A DNA stretch of 64,000 nucleotides from the NCBI GenBank assembly GCA_951406725.2, contig OX597834.1, positions 41,478,001 through 41,542,000 of the forward strand, in the 5' to 3' direction. This document shows positions 4,962 through 64,000 of this stretch, one piece after another. The position numbers were made by a program, and so were the translations under genes. This DNA is from Octopus vulgaris (taxonomy: Eukaryota). Position 1 is the first letter of the stretch, and each line of letters starts with the position of its first letter. The notes under the pieces are model-generated. The model ran no database searches, was not told the origin of the DNA, and was given only the letters and a program-made list of their open reading frames with translations.

Positions 4962-5398
4962 ATGGATCGAGAAGAAATAAAAGCAAGAAAACCAGTGGGA
5001 CATGTGAGACGAAGAAGACCTTTCAGGAATGGCATTCGTATACCAGCTCCCATACAGCCAGCTCCAGTGTTCTTTCCCAAAGGAGTGATAGCAGAACATG
5101 GCCAAAAACAGGTTGCTGAAATGAAAAATAAGGGCGAAAAAGAAAAGAAAGAGATGCAAGCTTTAAATAGAAAACTTACCTCCTTTCTTCAAAATATACG
5201 TTACTTAGAAGCTGAAAACAAACATCTGAAAAATAACTTGAGTGCTGAGAAGGACTTTAAATGTGATAAAATCAAGATCTTATACGAAGATCGACTGAAG
5301 GAGTTGGAAAGACTTCTAAAAGACAAAGATGTGGAACTTGCAGCTACAAAGTCCAAAAATGAATCGCTTGAAGAAGAAGTTGAAGATTTGAAAGAACA
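4962..5398 (+). CDS. IF gene 1 exon 1: head, coil 1a, start of coil 1b
   Basis: MDREE...EKEKKEMQALNRKLTSFLQNIRYLEAENKHL (IF helix-initiation-like); donor CA|gtaagt, phase 2; paralogous to 32789-33240. Confidence 0.92.
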
Positions 5399-7117
5399 GT
5401 AAGTGAAATTTGTTCTTAATATATCCTTTATTGTGTGCTCTTAATTATATCCTTTCTACGCATCATAAACGTCCATCTTTAAGGTGAGGTCAATTTCTCT
5501 TAATTAGATTAATTCAATTTCCTTTTAATTTTCTTTCTCTACATTCTACCTATAGTGAATTTTCGCATTCTAGTTAGGCATCCAGCTCTTGAAATTTTAA
5601 AATTTGCAACACTTAAGATATCAATATTAAGCGTAGAAACTCTGCTTGGTCTGTTTGTTGCAGAACAAAACTCTTAGGTTCAATTCTTATATTCTATGTA
5701 AAAAAAAAAAAAAGTCAGCTTGGCGAGTTGTTCATTTTTAAAAAGAATCTTGATATAGCTCGACATTCAGACAATACATAAATATCAAAAGGATTCAGCT
5801 AAATTTGCAATATCTAGATGAATAGCATTCGAGCTGTTAGGTCAGGCATACCTTTCGGTTTAAGTCTATATACATTTCTGATGAAACGAAATTCCTATCC
5901 ACCCTAGTGTAAGTCCGTGTAAGCTGATTTCTTTATTTGATCAGTTCCCTGTGATTGTTTTGAGTATTATGGCACATTTCTAGTCTATGTCAAGCTATGA
6001 TGGAAGTGAAGGCCCCATGAAATTTAACTAAGCTTTCAATAACCCGACTTACTTTTTTGACTTAATCAAAGTCATTCTCTCTTCACCTTTCGTGTTTCTT
6101 TTGTCAATACATCAAAATGACTTTGAACGTTTGTAATCACGATAACGATACTATCTGAATAAATTAACATGCTCCGTGAGTTTAAAAGACGAAACTGTAC
6201 TTTCTCGAACGAGTTGATTGTGAGAAAAATTAGTAAAAACTCAAGAGCGGGGGTAGGGTGGGGGGTAATCTTTAAAAATTGGGGGAATCGGAAAATTGTG
6301 TCGAACAAGAATGAAGCTTTTGTAGTGTAGTTCAGTGAAGACACTAAGGAAACCATTCATACGAGCCACAGTTGACACCATTGAAAGACTTTGAGGGAAT
6401 TGAACTGATCGGAGATCCATCCAATCCAATTCCAAGATGTTTTATGAAATATTATTGGAGGTGATGCCTTGCTTTTATAGATGTAAAAAAGAATTCAGTC
6501 CGTTTTAGAGGTTTCAGAACACTTACAACGAACAATATCAATATTTTTGCTAACATTGGGCTGTTACCCATGGATATACTCACTAGAATTGTGAACTAAA
6601 TAATATTTGCAATAATTTTATTGGAGTAGCATGACTTAAACGCGGGGTCTCAATTCTCAGATACTCTTTCACATTCGTAGTATCGCAACGTCCAATCGAA
6701 TTTCAATAATTTATACTGCGTCATATCGTAAAGATAAGCTTCCTGGTCCACTTCAACCAACCAATCAACGCCGCCGCCTAACATGATTGATTGGTACAGC
6801 ACTTTCGTAATTAACCAGGATGTTAATTAATGCTCAGATAATGTTACCGATTATTTCTTTTTTTTTTTTTTTTACTTGCTTCGGTCATTGAACTGCGGCT
6901 ATACTGGGGTACCACCTGGAAAGATTTAGTCGAATAAATCGACCCTACAACCGATGTCTGCTACATAGTCTAATTGGTTCTTTGGCTAAACCCTTAACTA
7001 CGGAAAGTAAATTGTGAACATTCTCCGTCTTCATTTACACTTTAATTATTAACCTAATTAGCAGTCTGATAGCCTGATCTCTATCACTTAAATATTGGAA
7101 ACTCTCTCTCTTTTTTT

Positions 7118-7506
7118 TACTTGTTTCAGTCATTTGACTGCGGCCATATTGGAGCACCGCCTTTAGTCGAGCAACTCGACCCCGGGACTTATTCTTTGTA
7201 AGCCCAGTACTTATTCTATCGGCCTCTTTTGCCGAACCGCTAAGAGGACGGGGACATAAACACACCAGCATCGGTTGTCAAGCAATGCTAGGGGGACAAA
7301 CACAAACATACATGCACACACATATATACATATATACACATATATACGACAGGCTTCTTTCAGTTTCCGTCTACCAAATCCACTCACAAGGCTTTGGTCG
7401 GCCCGAGGCTATAGCAGAAGACACTTGCCCAAGGTGCCACGCAGTGGGACTGAACCCGGAACCATGTGGTTGGTAAACAAGCTACTTACCACACATCCAC
7501 TCCTGC
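7118..7506 (-). mobile_element. SINE family A
   Basis: Aligns to 867-1280. Confidence 0.85.
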
Positions 7507-7983
7507 TATTTAAGCTTTTATAAGAACAGCCATAGTTAATTGCAAAAGTCCATAAACACTACCTTCACAGTTCTAAGATAACACTCCAAACCACTCCTAG
7601 CTATTTTATGCAGATACGTTTGGTATCTATAAAAATACTTGGTTGCTCGAACTCTAAATTTTGATACGAAAGCGATCAAAATTGCTGATCGTATGTAAAT
7701 CCCGGATAACCAATACCTTTTACTCGAATTCCCGAAATAGCTCTGGCAGATAATTGGTACAAAACTCTCTTTCGTACGTTCACTTATCCGACCTTAAGTA
7801 TTTACAAAAATTAGACTTTACAAATATAAAATTTGTAATTAATCCAGATGTGCATTTCAATTACTTTGTGTGGTGTATAATATAATTGGCAATTTTCCTA
7901 ATCTGTCCGTTTAAAAGACACCACATGATTTCGCTGTTTTTCTGGACCAGCCACAATCATCATACTCTTCCTCTCTCTCTTTT

Positions 7984-8381
7984 ACTCTTTTACTCTTTTA
8001 CTTGTTTCAGTCATTTGACTGCGGCCATGCTGGAGCACCGCCTTTAGTCGAGCAAATCGACCCCGGGACTTATTCTTTGTAAGCCCAGTACTTATTCTAT
8101 CGGTCTCTTTTGCCGAACCGCTAAGTGACGGGGACGTAAACACACCAGCATCGGTTGTCAAGCAATGCTAGGGGGACAAACACAGACACACAAACTTATA
8201 TTTATATACATATATACGACAGGCTTCTTTCAGTTTCCGTCTACCAAATCCACTCACAAGGCATTGGTCGGCCCGGGGCTATAGCAGAAGACACTTGCCC
8301 AAGGTGCCACGCAGTGGGACTGAACCCGGAACCATGTGGTTGGTTAGCAAGCTACTTACCACACAGCCACTCCTGCGCCTA
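7984..8381 (-). mobile_element. SINE family A
   Basis: Aligns to 867-1280. Confidence 0.88.
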
Positions 8382-8640
8382 TAATGAAGCTTATCAATGA
8401 TAAACATCTTTGTTTAATAACAGATATTGTCATCGATGACTTGAATGAAGCACCATTTGTATTTCTAACGAAACATCTTAGACGGATTTGTTTTGCCCTA
8501 GCTCAGTTCCTGATAATTAAAGGCGTTCCATTTATGACAATTCCATCTTCTTTGTGACACATTTGAGTGCGATTTGTGTTATAAATGGACGACCATGAAG
8601 AATCTCCTTCTCGTTGGCTCAATCCCAATTTTCTTTTATC

Positions 8641-61845: not shown

Positions 61846-62271
61846 CTGGATTTGGTAGACGGAACTTGAAAGAAGCCTGTTATGTATATATATATATATA
61901 TATATATATATATATATATGTGTGTGTGTGTGTGTGTATATATGTGTGTGTGTGTGTATATATGTGTGTGTGTGTGTGTATATATGTGTGTGTGTGTGTA
62001 TATATGTGTGTGTGTGTGTGTATATATGTGTGTGTGTGTGTATATATGTGTGTGTGTGTATATATATGTGTGTGTGTGTGTGTATATATGTGTGTGTGTG
62101 TGTATATATGTGTGTGTGTGTGTATATATATATATGTGTGTGTGTGTGTGTATATATATATGCATGTATAGAGAGAGAGGGGGAGAGAGAGACTTAATAA
62201 TAATATAAGATTAAGAATTGTGTTTTGATAGTTTTTCGTTAATAATTGCATTATTTATCTTGTCTTTATAG

Positions 62272-62492
62272 ATATCAAGTTTGAAAAGTAGAATAAGGGG
62301 TCTAGAAATGGAATTGGAGGAAGCCCTTAACGGACGGGCAACTGATGCCGCGAATTACAATCTCGAGATTAATACGTTGCGTTCAGAGTTGCAGGAAATG
62401 TTGAAGGAATTACAAGACTTGATGGATACTAAACTGTCCCTGGAATTGGAGATTGCAGCGTACCGCAAACTCCTTGAAGGAGAAGAGGGCAG
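62272..62492 (+). CDS. IF gene 3 exon 6 (partial gene)
   Basis: ttatag|ATA; ...LMDTKLSLELEIAAYRKLLEGEEGR; AG|gtaaat; 221 nt. Confidence 0.95.
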
Positions 62493-63883
62493 GTAAATAA
62501 TAAATATCTAGCTTTAAACAAGAATATTCTGGAAGTCTTTCCGTTCTTCCGTGGGTTTCACCTTCCGATGGAATCGTAGACACACTTTTGAGACACGCGA
62601 TGAAATTAAATTCGTCTTTTAGATTTCATATGAGAGAAAGAAGGAAACAGAGAGAGGGGGAGAGGGAGAGAGAGTGGGATATATATATATATATATATAT
62701 ATATATATATATATATATATATATATATATATATATATAGAGAGAGAGAGAGAGAGAGAGAGAGAATTTACAAAACAATAAACAAAACAAAAGACGAAGA
62801 AGACAGGTGTGTAAGCACCAAACAGCTGTATTAGTTTAACGCTCGGGAAGTGAGAAAGACTTTTACGTTTCGAGCCGACGCTCTTCACCAGAAAGGAACA
62901 GAATGGGATGAGATATTCTCAGATAGTTCAAAAGTAGAGCGATCAGGTAACTGACATTGAATAACATGAAGATTCTCGCCGTTTTGCTTGCACCTCAAGA
63001 ATGATCGCGTTTGGCACATGTCATCAGTAAATATATTGTTCTGCATATACCTTGTGAAACATTAGATAACAACAGAACTGGATAGTTGAAATGCCATTGA
63101 CTGGGATTCGCGTGGGGCCATCACATTTGTAACAAAGCAGAATCTACAATGATACAGCTCAAAACTTCATCTTCTGCTCTACACCTTATTGTCACAACTG
63201 CATAGCAAACAACATCCACGTTTCTTTCCCTCCACCTCCCTATTCTCACCGTAATACACTTACACATAACGAACAAATGGAAATCACTCGCATATACTTC
63301 AAAAAGAGATTCAACATTAAAAATCATCAACAAAAGTGCAGCATATTATTCTACAACACTACAAATCACACCACAATATCACTAATAACCAATATGAACA
63401 TGGGAAACATGTCCATTAACACGTACGCACACACACACATACACACACGCTCTCACACACACACTCACACGCACAAGAATACTCACACCAAAACACACAA
63501 AATAGCGACTGAATTTTTTTACCGTTCTGAGTCACTGACATCTTTAATTTCGCATATCACAATTACCCGGTTTGTAAAATCATGGTTTGCTAGATCTGAT
63601 AGAAAAGGCAGCCAGATTTCAATATGTTCCCGCGCTACACTTTTGTGCAAGAAACGCAAATTGAACGATATATACCGACAAAGAATACGACGGGATTACC
63701 TTTTCCCAACACGAGCCTTTTCTGTCTCGGCTAAACTAAAGTTGAAACTCAACAAACCATGCCCACCTCCAACGACAGCAAATACGAAACAAACTTCATC
63801 TTGTTGGAGACGATGATTCGTTATATGTACATAGCCATTCATATCATTTGTGCCATTACATGAAATGTATTTTTCTTTTGCAG

Positions 63884-63963
63884 GGTGTCTTCAATGATGA
63901 CCAGTTTTAGTGGACTTCAAACAGAATCTGAGTCTGCACTATCAGCTGCACTCCAATCAGCAA
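63884..63963 (+). CDS. IF gene 3 exon 7 (80 nt)
   Basis: ttgcag|G GTG; VSSMMTSFSGLQTESESALSAALQSA; GCA A|gtgagt. Confidence 0.88.
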
Positions 63964-64000
63964 GTGAGTTGCATTTCTCTTCTGTATATTATATACATAT

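Follow-up and report, generated by a model that had tools for sequence, protein, structure and literature searches.

Tandemly duplicated intermediate filament genes with altered rods in Octopus vulgaris

Which class of intermediate filament (IF) protein is encoded by a group of related genes in Octopus vulgaris, from which ancestor did these genes descend, and how could subunits with altered rods contribute to a filament network? These questions are raised by a stretch of 64,000 nt (assembly GCA_951406725.2, contig OX597834.1, positions 41,478,001-41,542,000, forward strand), hereafter called the window, for which an original prediction based on the letters alone had proposed at least three tandem paralogues with a lamin-type tail. 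We find that two complete genes, A and B, arose by duplication of a whole gene and that a third, C, is represented by two exons. Sequence comparison makes it very probable that the family is an octopod-lineage expansion of a molluscan cytoplasmic IF gene of the RGP51 type ('retrograde protein of 51 kDa-like'). The best reading overall, to which we assign a probability of about 0.6, is that of an epithelial family of co-polymerising cytoplasmic IFs in which the protein of gene A would act as a partner-dependent subunit. The genes are already present as automatic RefSeq models, and the cluster and its rod features appear to be newly described here; a search of open-access papers, with subscription papers outside its coverage, found no description of them. 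New are the change in a coil-2 segment, the loss of an end motif in A, the homogenisation of exon 2 and a repeat of splice donors in A.

Gene models and tandem duplication

Both complete genes lie on the plus strand, A at 4962-28230 and B at 32789-58761, and each comprises 11 exons with GT-AG boundaries at all ten introns, matching phases and no internal stop codon. The exons measure 437/187/96/165/96/221/38-248/104/111/108/24 nt in A and 452/187/96/165/132/221/44 or 83/104/111/114/36 nt in B. Exons 2, 3, 4, 6, 8 and 9 are thus equal in size (187, 96, 165, 221, 104 and 111 nt), while exons 5 and 7 differ, exactly the same-strand pattern (187/96/165/x/221/x/104/111) that had been predicted. For comparison, vimentin has exons of 61, 96, 162, 126, 221 and 44 nt, and the short form of exon 7 in gene B is 44 nt. 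The features of the locus are as follows:

4674-4961, plus strand: proximal promoter of gene A with its 5' untranslated region (UTR) and, at 4775, a TATA-like box, the whole homologous to 32493-32788
4962-5398, plus strand: gene A exon 1, head, coil 1A and first part of coil 1B, with Lys in place of the helix-initiation Arg
9748-9934, plus strand: gene A exon 2, 187 nt, holding the lamin-type 42-residue insert
10972-11067, plus strand: gene A exon 3, 96 nt
13281-13445, plus strand: gene A exon 4, 165 nt
15709-15804, plus strand: gene A exon 5, 96 nt or 32 residues, 10 below the usual 42, predicted helix break
17478-17698, plus strand: gene A exon 6, 221 nt, closing part of coil 2, in which the helix-termination motif is degenerate, no Pfam Filament match when scanned singly
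18802-19049, plus strand: gene A exon 7, variable 3' end, repeat with seven in-frame donors
21348-21451, plus strand: gene A exon 8, 104 nt, lamin-tail domain
22384-22494, plus strand: gene A exon 9, 111 nt, lamin-tail domain
24176-24283, plus strand: gene A exon 10, 108 nt, lamin-tail domain
28207-28230, plus strand: gene A exon 11, coding part with stop
28231-29380, plus strand: gene A 3' UTR region, two blocks homologous to 58762-59385
32493-32788, plus strand: proximal promoter of gene B with its 5' UTR and, at 32612, a TATA-like box
32789-33240, plus strand: gene B exon 1
38790-38976, plus strand: gene B exon 2, 187 nt, sharing homogenised sequence with C/D-type paralogues
42839-42934, plus strand: gene B exon 3, 96 nt, mosaic of B-type and C/D/E-type sequence
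43946-44110, plus strand: gene B exon 4, 165 nt
46696-46827, plus strand: gene B exon 5, 132 nt or 44 residues, among them 2 Pro and 7 Gly, inserted in coil 2 and predicted to be non-helical
50000-50220, plus strand: gene B exon 6, 221 nt, helix-termination motif intact
51410-51492, plus strand: gene B exon 7, in-frame donors at 51453 (44 nt) and 51492 (83 nt), the O. sinensis record having the long form
54985-55088, plus strand: gene B exon 8, 104 nt, lamin-tail domain
55668-55778, plus strand: gene B exon 9, 111 nt
58093-58206, plus strand: gene B exon 10, 114 nt
58726-58761, plus strand: gene B exon 11, coding part with stop
58762-59385, plus strand: gene B 3' UTR region
60148-60247, no strand: assembly gap of 100 N, preceding the gene C remnant
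62272-62492, plus strand: gene C exon 6, 221 nt, motif intact, 99% identical to O. sinensis record P0005
63884-63963, plus strand: gene C exon 7, 80 nt, the gene running past the window end

The proteins of A and B are identical at 274 of 526 aligned residues (52%), with a dS of 0.58 and a dN/dS of 0.65. Their relationship extends well beyond the coding sequence. The two promoters align at 198 of 310 columns (score 175, compared with 50 for the best of 100 shuffles in 2-base blocks, the null used throughout for non-coding alignments) and the 3' UTRs at 372 of 566 columns (337, compared with 79), as the original prediction had anticipated. In addition, 18 of the 20 intron flanks score above all 100 shuffles, two of them probably aided by simple repeats. 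The end of UTR homology in A is separated from the promoter of B by about 3 kb of gap-free sequence, and both genes lie on the plus strand, each with its own promoter. The shared promoters, UTRs and intron flanks establish that A and B arose by tandem duplication of a whole gene at the DNA level. That A, B and C are haplotype duplicates is ruled out, as predicted, by dS values of about 0.6 and by the divergence of the contiguous genes A and B.

Gene C is represented in the window by exons 6 and 7 only. Searches by tblastn with 21 cephalopod relatives found none of its exons 1-5 anywhere in the window, although by analogy with A and B these would span more than 10 kb; the adjacency of C to B therefore rests on the scaffold join at the 100-N gap. 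Its exon 6 is 65% identical to that of B and 32% to that of A, and the dS between C and B is 0.59, which indicates a separate, genuine paralogue. Hence, of the predicted row of at least three tandem genes, the contiguity of A and B and the reality of C as a paralogue hold, while the tandem position of C depends on the gap. Apart from low-complexity matches to P0029, the same tblastn approach added no IF exon, whether upstream of 4962, in the interval separating A from B or on the window's minus strand.

The gap and the missing exons of C also give some weight to the possibility that the locus is in part an assembly artefact, such that C is not next to B and the mosaic exon 3 of B, described below, is a consensus error. 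Collapse would be invited by the paralogues C, D and E, whose exons 1-5 show 82-100% identity in O. sinensis, and RefSeq itself holds chimeric B/E isoforms. However, A and B are contiguous, gap-free and clearly diverged, C has its own orthologue, and within each species there are slight differences between the exon-2 copies. Moreover, adjacent gene numbers in a published table (PMC10138644, Table S1: LOC115222952-955 and 738-739; OCBIM_22025453, 455 and 456) provide an indirect sign of linkage in two other species. Contigs of the same size are listed for eight O. sinensis records (34.1 Mb) and likewise for three O. bimaculoides, three Argonauta and two O. vulgaris records, and two cuttlefish records lie on one 597-kb contig; equal listed contig size is a proxy for linkage only, with the spacing between genes not given. 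A partial artefact, which would be compatible with the other readings discussed below, thus appears distinctly unlikely.

Protein class and descent

The Pfam Filament model matches the orthologues of A and B with 87.7 and 136.5 bits, respectively (cut-off 40), and the rod exons 1, 3, 4 and 6 of the window match it even when scanned singly, except for exon 6 of A. Coil 1B aligns without gaps to lamin A (6jlb) and with a gap to vimentin, in agreement with the proposal that the 187-nt exon consists of a short exon plus a 42-residue coil-1B insert. The Pfam lamin-tail model detected neither the tail of the full-length A and B orthologues, at E<=0.001, nor any of the six tail exons tried singly. 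Nevertheless, a custom tail model built from 27 named non-cephalopod IF tails recognised A (E 7e-13) and B (E 2e-17), leaving reversed sequences unmatched. In line with this result, Foldseek searches with AlphaFold models of the O. sinensis orthologues of A and B returned lamin Ig folds as best matches (E 9e-9 and 9e-8), the tail of the B model being derived partly from a neighbouring paralogue. Profile and predicted fold thus indicate that the lamin-tail domain of both proteins is genuine, and the family assignment of the original prediction stands.

A long rod and a lamin-tail fold are also what would be expected if these genes were duplicates of a nuclear lamin lacking the CaaX box. In each of the 23 species of cephalopod examined, lamins have an aromatic C-terminal motif in place of CaaX (PMC10125929). 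The absence of CaaX is therefore uninformative here, and the predicted step from missing CaaX to cytoplasmic proteins fails. The cytoplasmic identity stands on other grounds: A and B show no basic cluster indicative of a nuclear localisation signal between rod and tail domain, no S/T-P site of the CDK1 type in their heads and neither CaaX nor the aromatic motif at their C-termini. They also have 11 exons, compared with 12 or more in cephalopod lamins (PMC10125929), and are nested among cytoplasmic IFs in a tree without a lamin row, the 323 proteins gathered including no cephalopod lamin. Based on these sequence features, A and B are best read as cytoplasmic IFs, and a lamin origin is extremely improbable.

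To place the family, a tree was inferred from 37 rows (IQ-TREE, LG+G4), rooted on five annelid and nemertean rows and leaving out the chimeric isoforms X2 and X4, the partial records P0009, P0016, P0020, P0025 and P0029 and most unnamed matches. It contains a coleoid clade (support 100/100), within it an octopod clade (100/97) and, nested therein, an Octopus-only subclade of A, F, B, C and D types (100/99), whose sister is one Argonauta row. A quick mixture tree of 54 rows recovers the same coleoid, octopod and Octopus groups. The coleoid clade joins bivalve, gastropod and chiton rows of the RGP51 type (100/100). No gastropod or bivalve row falls inside the coleoid clade of the 37-row tree, and no one-to-one orthologues exist among the rows tested. 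The molluscan phylogeny thus argues for the lineage-specific expansion that had been proposed, probably from an RGP51-type gene.

Compared with the RGP51-type IFs of Ostrea, Mytilus and Haliotis, their sister rows, the octopus proteins share the long rod, the lamin-tail domain and the type of last tail strand. By contrast, the rod of the RGP51-type proteins is 355 residues long, its exon-5 segment measures 42 residues and its end motifs are intact; these proteins show about 29% rod identity to B and come in few copies, whereas the octopus family has 8 or more. Their class is probably that of the Helix non-neuronal IF, an equation made without the Helix sequence itself. The gene for this Helix protein, according to what Dodemont et al. 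are said to have described in 1990, is divided into 11 exons, the introns within the rod lying at type III positions.

The orthologues are P0010 ('ifa-1-like') for A, P0002 and the O. bimaculoides record P0003 for B, and P0005 for C. The O. sinensis RefSeq orthologues are 96% identical to A, match B at 469 of 480 residues over exons 1-8 and match C at 96 of 100, and exon 1 of B is 99% identical to O. sinensis records. However, these records are automatic models, are misnamed and in part join exons of B to a neighbouring paralogue. In P0001 and P0002 (isoforms X4 and X2 of LOC115222739), the 5' exons of B are followed by 3' exons of this neighbour. We do not interpret them as products of intergenic splicing but as probable model chimeras, the 5' part of the neighbour being annotated separately (LOC118767372).

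The RefSeq label of the orthologues, '70 kDa neurofilament protein(-like)', suggests a neuronal role, and octopus skin is richly innervated. Yet forcing the coleoid clade together with eight molluscan neurofilament rows was rejected by an AU test (p=0.0005) that was framed after inspection of the quick tree and involves long branches. Rod identity to Cornu NF70 is only 25-33%, and the last tail strand is of the EKA-x-L type in this family and in RGP51-type rows but of the H-x-QKT type in neurofilament rows. Moreover, in the examined rows of the skin-mucus data discussed below, an NF60-like peptide maps to a different O. bimaculoides gene, OCBIM_22000069. The neurofilament reading is thus largely refuted by descent and very improbable, and by sequence comparison the names mislead.

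A further possibility is that the family extends the cephalopod lens IF and forms a scaffold resembling beaded filaments. The lens proteins described from Nototodarus (Q06270 / gi|159852) and Enteroctopus (AAA16613) are very probably basal members of the same coleoid clade. The basal records P0018 and P0022 have the mass (70 kDa) and pI (5.28-5.29) listed for the Nototodarus IF (PMC6597576), and O. vulgaris transcripts of the coleoid clade carry the best-hit label 'omega-crystallin [Enteroctopus dofleini]'. Mass, pI and these labels, rather than a sequence match to the named lens proteins, make it probable that the lens IF already described corresponds to the basal coleoid members. Between squid and octopus basal IFs, we compute identities of 68% in the rod, 23% in the head and 38% in the tail. 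The values that Tomarev et al. reportedly gave in 1993 for the squid and octopus lens IFs are 68%, 39% and 58%, the rod value being equal to ours and those for head and tail differing from ours. Unlike the basal P0012, P0018 and P0022, in which rod length and motifs have stayed canonical, A, B and C are derived; they lie on a long branch and share only 34-45% rod identity with the lens-type P0012. Furthermore, A and C peptides occur in skin mucus, and the Nototodarus IF itself is listed also in squid skin (PMC7024357) and statocyst endolymph (PMC6597576), so that it is not confined to the lens. Despite the resemblance of A to the lens protein filensin considered below, an optical role for the genes of the window is improbable.

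Altered rods, homogenised exons and expression

The segment of coil 2 encoded by exon 5 has 42 residues in 13 of 15 other coleoid rows and in 156 of the 157 remaining hits. In the Octopus subclade, by contrast, it varies from 32 to 47 residues (A, 32; B, 44) and differs from 42 in 13 of 14 rows; proline is present in all 14 subclade rows, compared with 10 of 157 others, the row counts not being phylogenetically independent. AlphaFold predicts the corresponding residues (300-330 in the B orthologue, 302-313 in the A orthologue) to be non-helical, with a pLDDT below 50. The helix-initiation motif is likewise changed: the Arg of LNxR, present in 171 of 186 rows (with two gaps), has given way to Lys in A, in B and throughout the 13 subclade rows in which the site is covered.

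A further departure affects gene A alone among the genes of the window. At least 16 positions of the 19-residue rod end match the consensus in 182 of 184 IFs compared, and P0013 has 12 matches, whereas A has 4 and its orthologue 5. In B and C, the helix-termination motif is intact. The AlphaFold model of the A orthologue nevertheless predicts a heptad-type helix through the end of exon 6. Rod-end motifs have been described as critical for IF assembly (PMC10626283). Two other records resemble A in part: P0187 (479 residues) has a strongly eroded and shortened rod with a tail near that of F-type paralogues and may be a further divergent member, and P0195 (94 residues) is a fragment resembling exons 4-5 of A (63% identity) that continues into the intron which A has at this point, from which an orthologue of A in a different octopod can be deduced.

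Immediately downstream of the altered rod end, exon 7 of A contains a 30-nt tandem repeat (18823-19064, 8.1 copies) with seven in-frame GTGAGT donors (18839, 18869, 18899, 18929, 18959, 18989 and 19049). Depending on the donor used, the protein would comprise 528-598 residues, and the acidic, proline-rich spacer in front of the tail domain is predicted to vary in length. A GC donor at 19081 was considered as the end of the exon and rejected because it causes a frameshift. What serves B and C as their distal exon-7 donor survives in A as an out-of-frame relic with GC, and the donors within the repeat would be used in its place.

While their rods have diverged in these respects, the paralogues remain closely similar in one exon. 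Exon 2 of B and C is 98% identical in the O. sinensis/window comparison and 97% in O. bimaculoides, whereas identity elsewhere is 57-63% (exon 1) and 65-73% (exon 4). Quartet sites group exon 2 by species (3:0) but the other ten exons by orthologue (62:4; p=0.0007, or about 0.007 once 11 exons are allowed for). For the other cephalopods, conversion and synteny were compared on proteins rather than DNA. This pattern indicates that exon 2, which encodes part of coil 1B, has been homogenised among B, C and D by gene conversion within each species. Exon 3 of B is a mosaic, its first 10 codons being B-type and its last 22 identical in protein sequence to C/D/E-type paralogues. Of the 11 differences between B and its O. 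sinensis orthologue over 480 residues, 8 fall in this exon, and all 8 match the C/D/E type (p 5e-8), reflecting either recent conversion or a consensus error. The pairs P0004/P0005 and P0008/P0009 are 94-98% identical in head and rod and 66-73% in the tail, which suggests tail swapping or more conversion.

Evidence that these genes are expressed comes from the table of peptide-spectrum matches of an O. vulgaris skin-mucus proteome (PMC10138644, Table S1). The rows examined include at least six distinct A-type peptides, five of which match the window exactly as judged by eye; one crosses the exon 6/7 junction into the 30-nt repeat, and another, lying wholly within the repeat, has been attributed to two RefSeq isoforms out of three, as would be expected if alternative exon-7 donors are used. 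At least three tail-specific peptides are of C type, and one more in exon 6 of C is shared with another paralogue. The peptide of row 375, assigned to an O. vulgaris transcript only, requires an Arg that is present in the window and absent in O. sinensis, and that of row 2187 carries the O. sinensis residue and not that of the window. In addition, a second study reports 'ifa-1-like isoform X1' among the proteins whose abundance is raised in senescent animals (PMC11431876). Expression of A and C in epithelium or skin is thus probable, and the proposal that the cluster serves a specialised tissue is borne out to the extent of this skin link for A and C.

How, then, could these subunits work together? 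Following tandem duplication of an RGP51-type ancestor gene in the Octopus lineage, demonstrated at the whole-gene level for A and B, their products would build the cytoplasmic filament network of epithelial cells, including those of the skin, as mixed polymers. Coil 1B is the overlap zone of antiparallel IF tetramers. By keeping this region alike, gene conversion may have left the paralogues compatible for co-assembly while their heads, hinges and tails diverged, and the hinge in coil 2 would add flexibility. It is doubtful, however, whether the conversion of exon 2 was selected rather than neutral. The protein of A would be unable to elongate alone and may instead depend on a partner or modify filament length or spacing through its variable spacer. 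A comparable case is filensin (BFSP1), in which both end motifs are modified and coil 2 is shortened (29 residues, compared with a loss of 10 in A; PMC10626283), and which requires a partner for assembly (PMC10626283; PMC2290875). The two proteins share no homology beyond being IFs, and motif decay is fuller in A. Filensin also has a short rod and no lamin-tail domain. By this analogy, partner dependence of A, as of filensin on phakinin, has somewhat less than an even chance of being correct.

Several observations weigh against an epithelial family of co-polymerising subunits. All A-type mucus peptides come from one raw file, no B-specific peptide is present in the 18 of 20 relevant rows that were examined, and the presence of a true neurofilament-type peptide (row 216) means that mucus is no proof of epidermal origin (PMC10138644). 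The signal for DNA-level conversion between A and B is too weak to be claimed (run test p=0.035; window test p=0.19). The AlphaFold models are monomers with a pTM of 0.28, viewed without a canonical control. As to descent, long branches lead to both the coleoid and the RGP51-type rows, and attraction may account for part of their grouping, and the tree contains no lamin, cephalopod (squid) neurofilament, Helix non-neuronal IF or Nautilus rows. Finally, dN/dS is high (0.65 for A and B, 0.70-0.93 for exon 6 of A), and comparison with the O. sinensis orthologues gives 20 differences in 481 residues for A against 3 in 448 for B outside exon 3; relaxed selection fits these values equally well.

This last point leads to the alternative of neutral birth and death, according to which tandem duplication and conversion gave rise to the cluster as a mere by-product, with A under relaxed selection and its protein left out of filaments. 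Besides the high dN/dS (0.93 for A and C in exon 6) and the faster change of A, it accords with the loss from A of a motif described as assembly-critical (PMC10626283), with the even more eroded rod of P0187 and with the retrieval of no full-length A record from O. bimaculoides. However, the frame of A has stayed open and its splice sites canonical over 11 exons since a split at a dS of about 0.6, and its heptad-type helix is predicted to reach the end of exon 6. In addition, its protein is detected in mucus and reported to change with senescence (PMC11431876), and the A-like fragment P0195 exists in another genome. We regard neutral decay as unlikely and favour the family of co-polymerising epithelial IFs.

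Sequence context and implications

The window has a GC content of 39% and is rich in microsatellite and SINE sequence, with multi-copy sequence covering about 18% of it and a single gap of 100 N; an Rfam scan of the window returned no matches. A SINE-like repeat of about 430 nt with an internal CA/TA microsatellite occurs in at least 10-12 copies on both strands, among them the following:

855-1273, SINE-like repeat
7090-7504, SINE-like repeat
7971-8374, SINE-like repeat
12200-12616, SINE-like repeat
13444-13881, SINE-like repeat
36180-36585, SINE-like repeat
37016-37443, SINE-like repeat
41618-42055, SINE-like repeat
44297-44735, SINE-like repeat
44975-45380, SINE-like repeat
49546-49953, SINE-like repeat

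Intron 10 of A carries an element (24795-27007) bounded by inverted repeats of about 500 nt that are 99% identical (24795-25308 / 26495-27007) and enclose a frame on the minus strand that weakly matches GIY-YIG (E 7e-4); it is presumably a young Penelope-like insertion. A stop-interrupted, transposase-like fragment in intron 1 of B (33867-34900; HTH_23, E 1e-5) is one that we take to resemble Tc1/mariner. Intron 7 of B (52300-54300) contains what by eye are decayed reverse-transcriptase-like fragments, two frames of which gave no Pfam match at E<=0.001, and intron 9 a near-perfect palindrome of 208 nt (56726-56939). Further inverted repeats lie upstream of A (113 nt, 90%; 3960-4072 / 4584-4692), stopping at the edge of its conserved promoter and possibly representing a MITE-like insertion, and 3' of the 3' UTR of B (88 nt; 59595-59682 / 59819-59906).

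Taken together, the octopus genes are a candidate invertebrate parallel to the keratin clusters of vertebrates, which likewise consist of same-strand tandem IF paralogues, represent a lineage-specific expansion and are associated with skin. Their origin is independent, however, and the octopus genes encode long-rod proteins with a lamin-tail domain and number about ten rather than dozens. The two obligate heterodimer classes are a keratin feature for which the sequences of the octopus family give no evidence. In a more speculative and, in our view, unlikely extension, Octopus would have evolved a keratin-like multi-gene epithelial IF system of its own, with a hinged coil 2 in every subunit, a coil-1B surface maintained by conversion and a motif-less A protein whose splice-tuned spacer sets filament length or spacing, giving the skin its extreme extensibility.

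If A were merely decaying, our finding would amount to an ordinary tandem expansion, and lineage-specific expansion of IF genes is common in principle; the rod changes described here are unusual and directly testable. The findings also bear on how the skin of this animal is discussed, correcting the misleading 'neurofilament' labels by which papers on the octopus skin proteome are already influenced. IF assembly has been treated as following near-invariant rules of rod length and of the two end motifs, yet the Octopus subclade breaks the length rule, and A drops an end motif and is nevertheless made as a protein. The family may thus provide, beside filensin, natural variants for testing what these rules do, in an animal whose soft skin serves as both armour and display.

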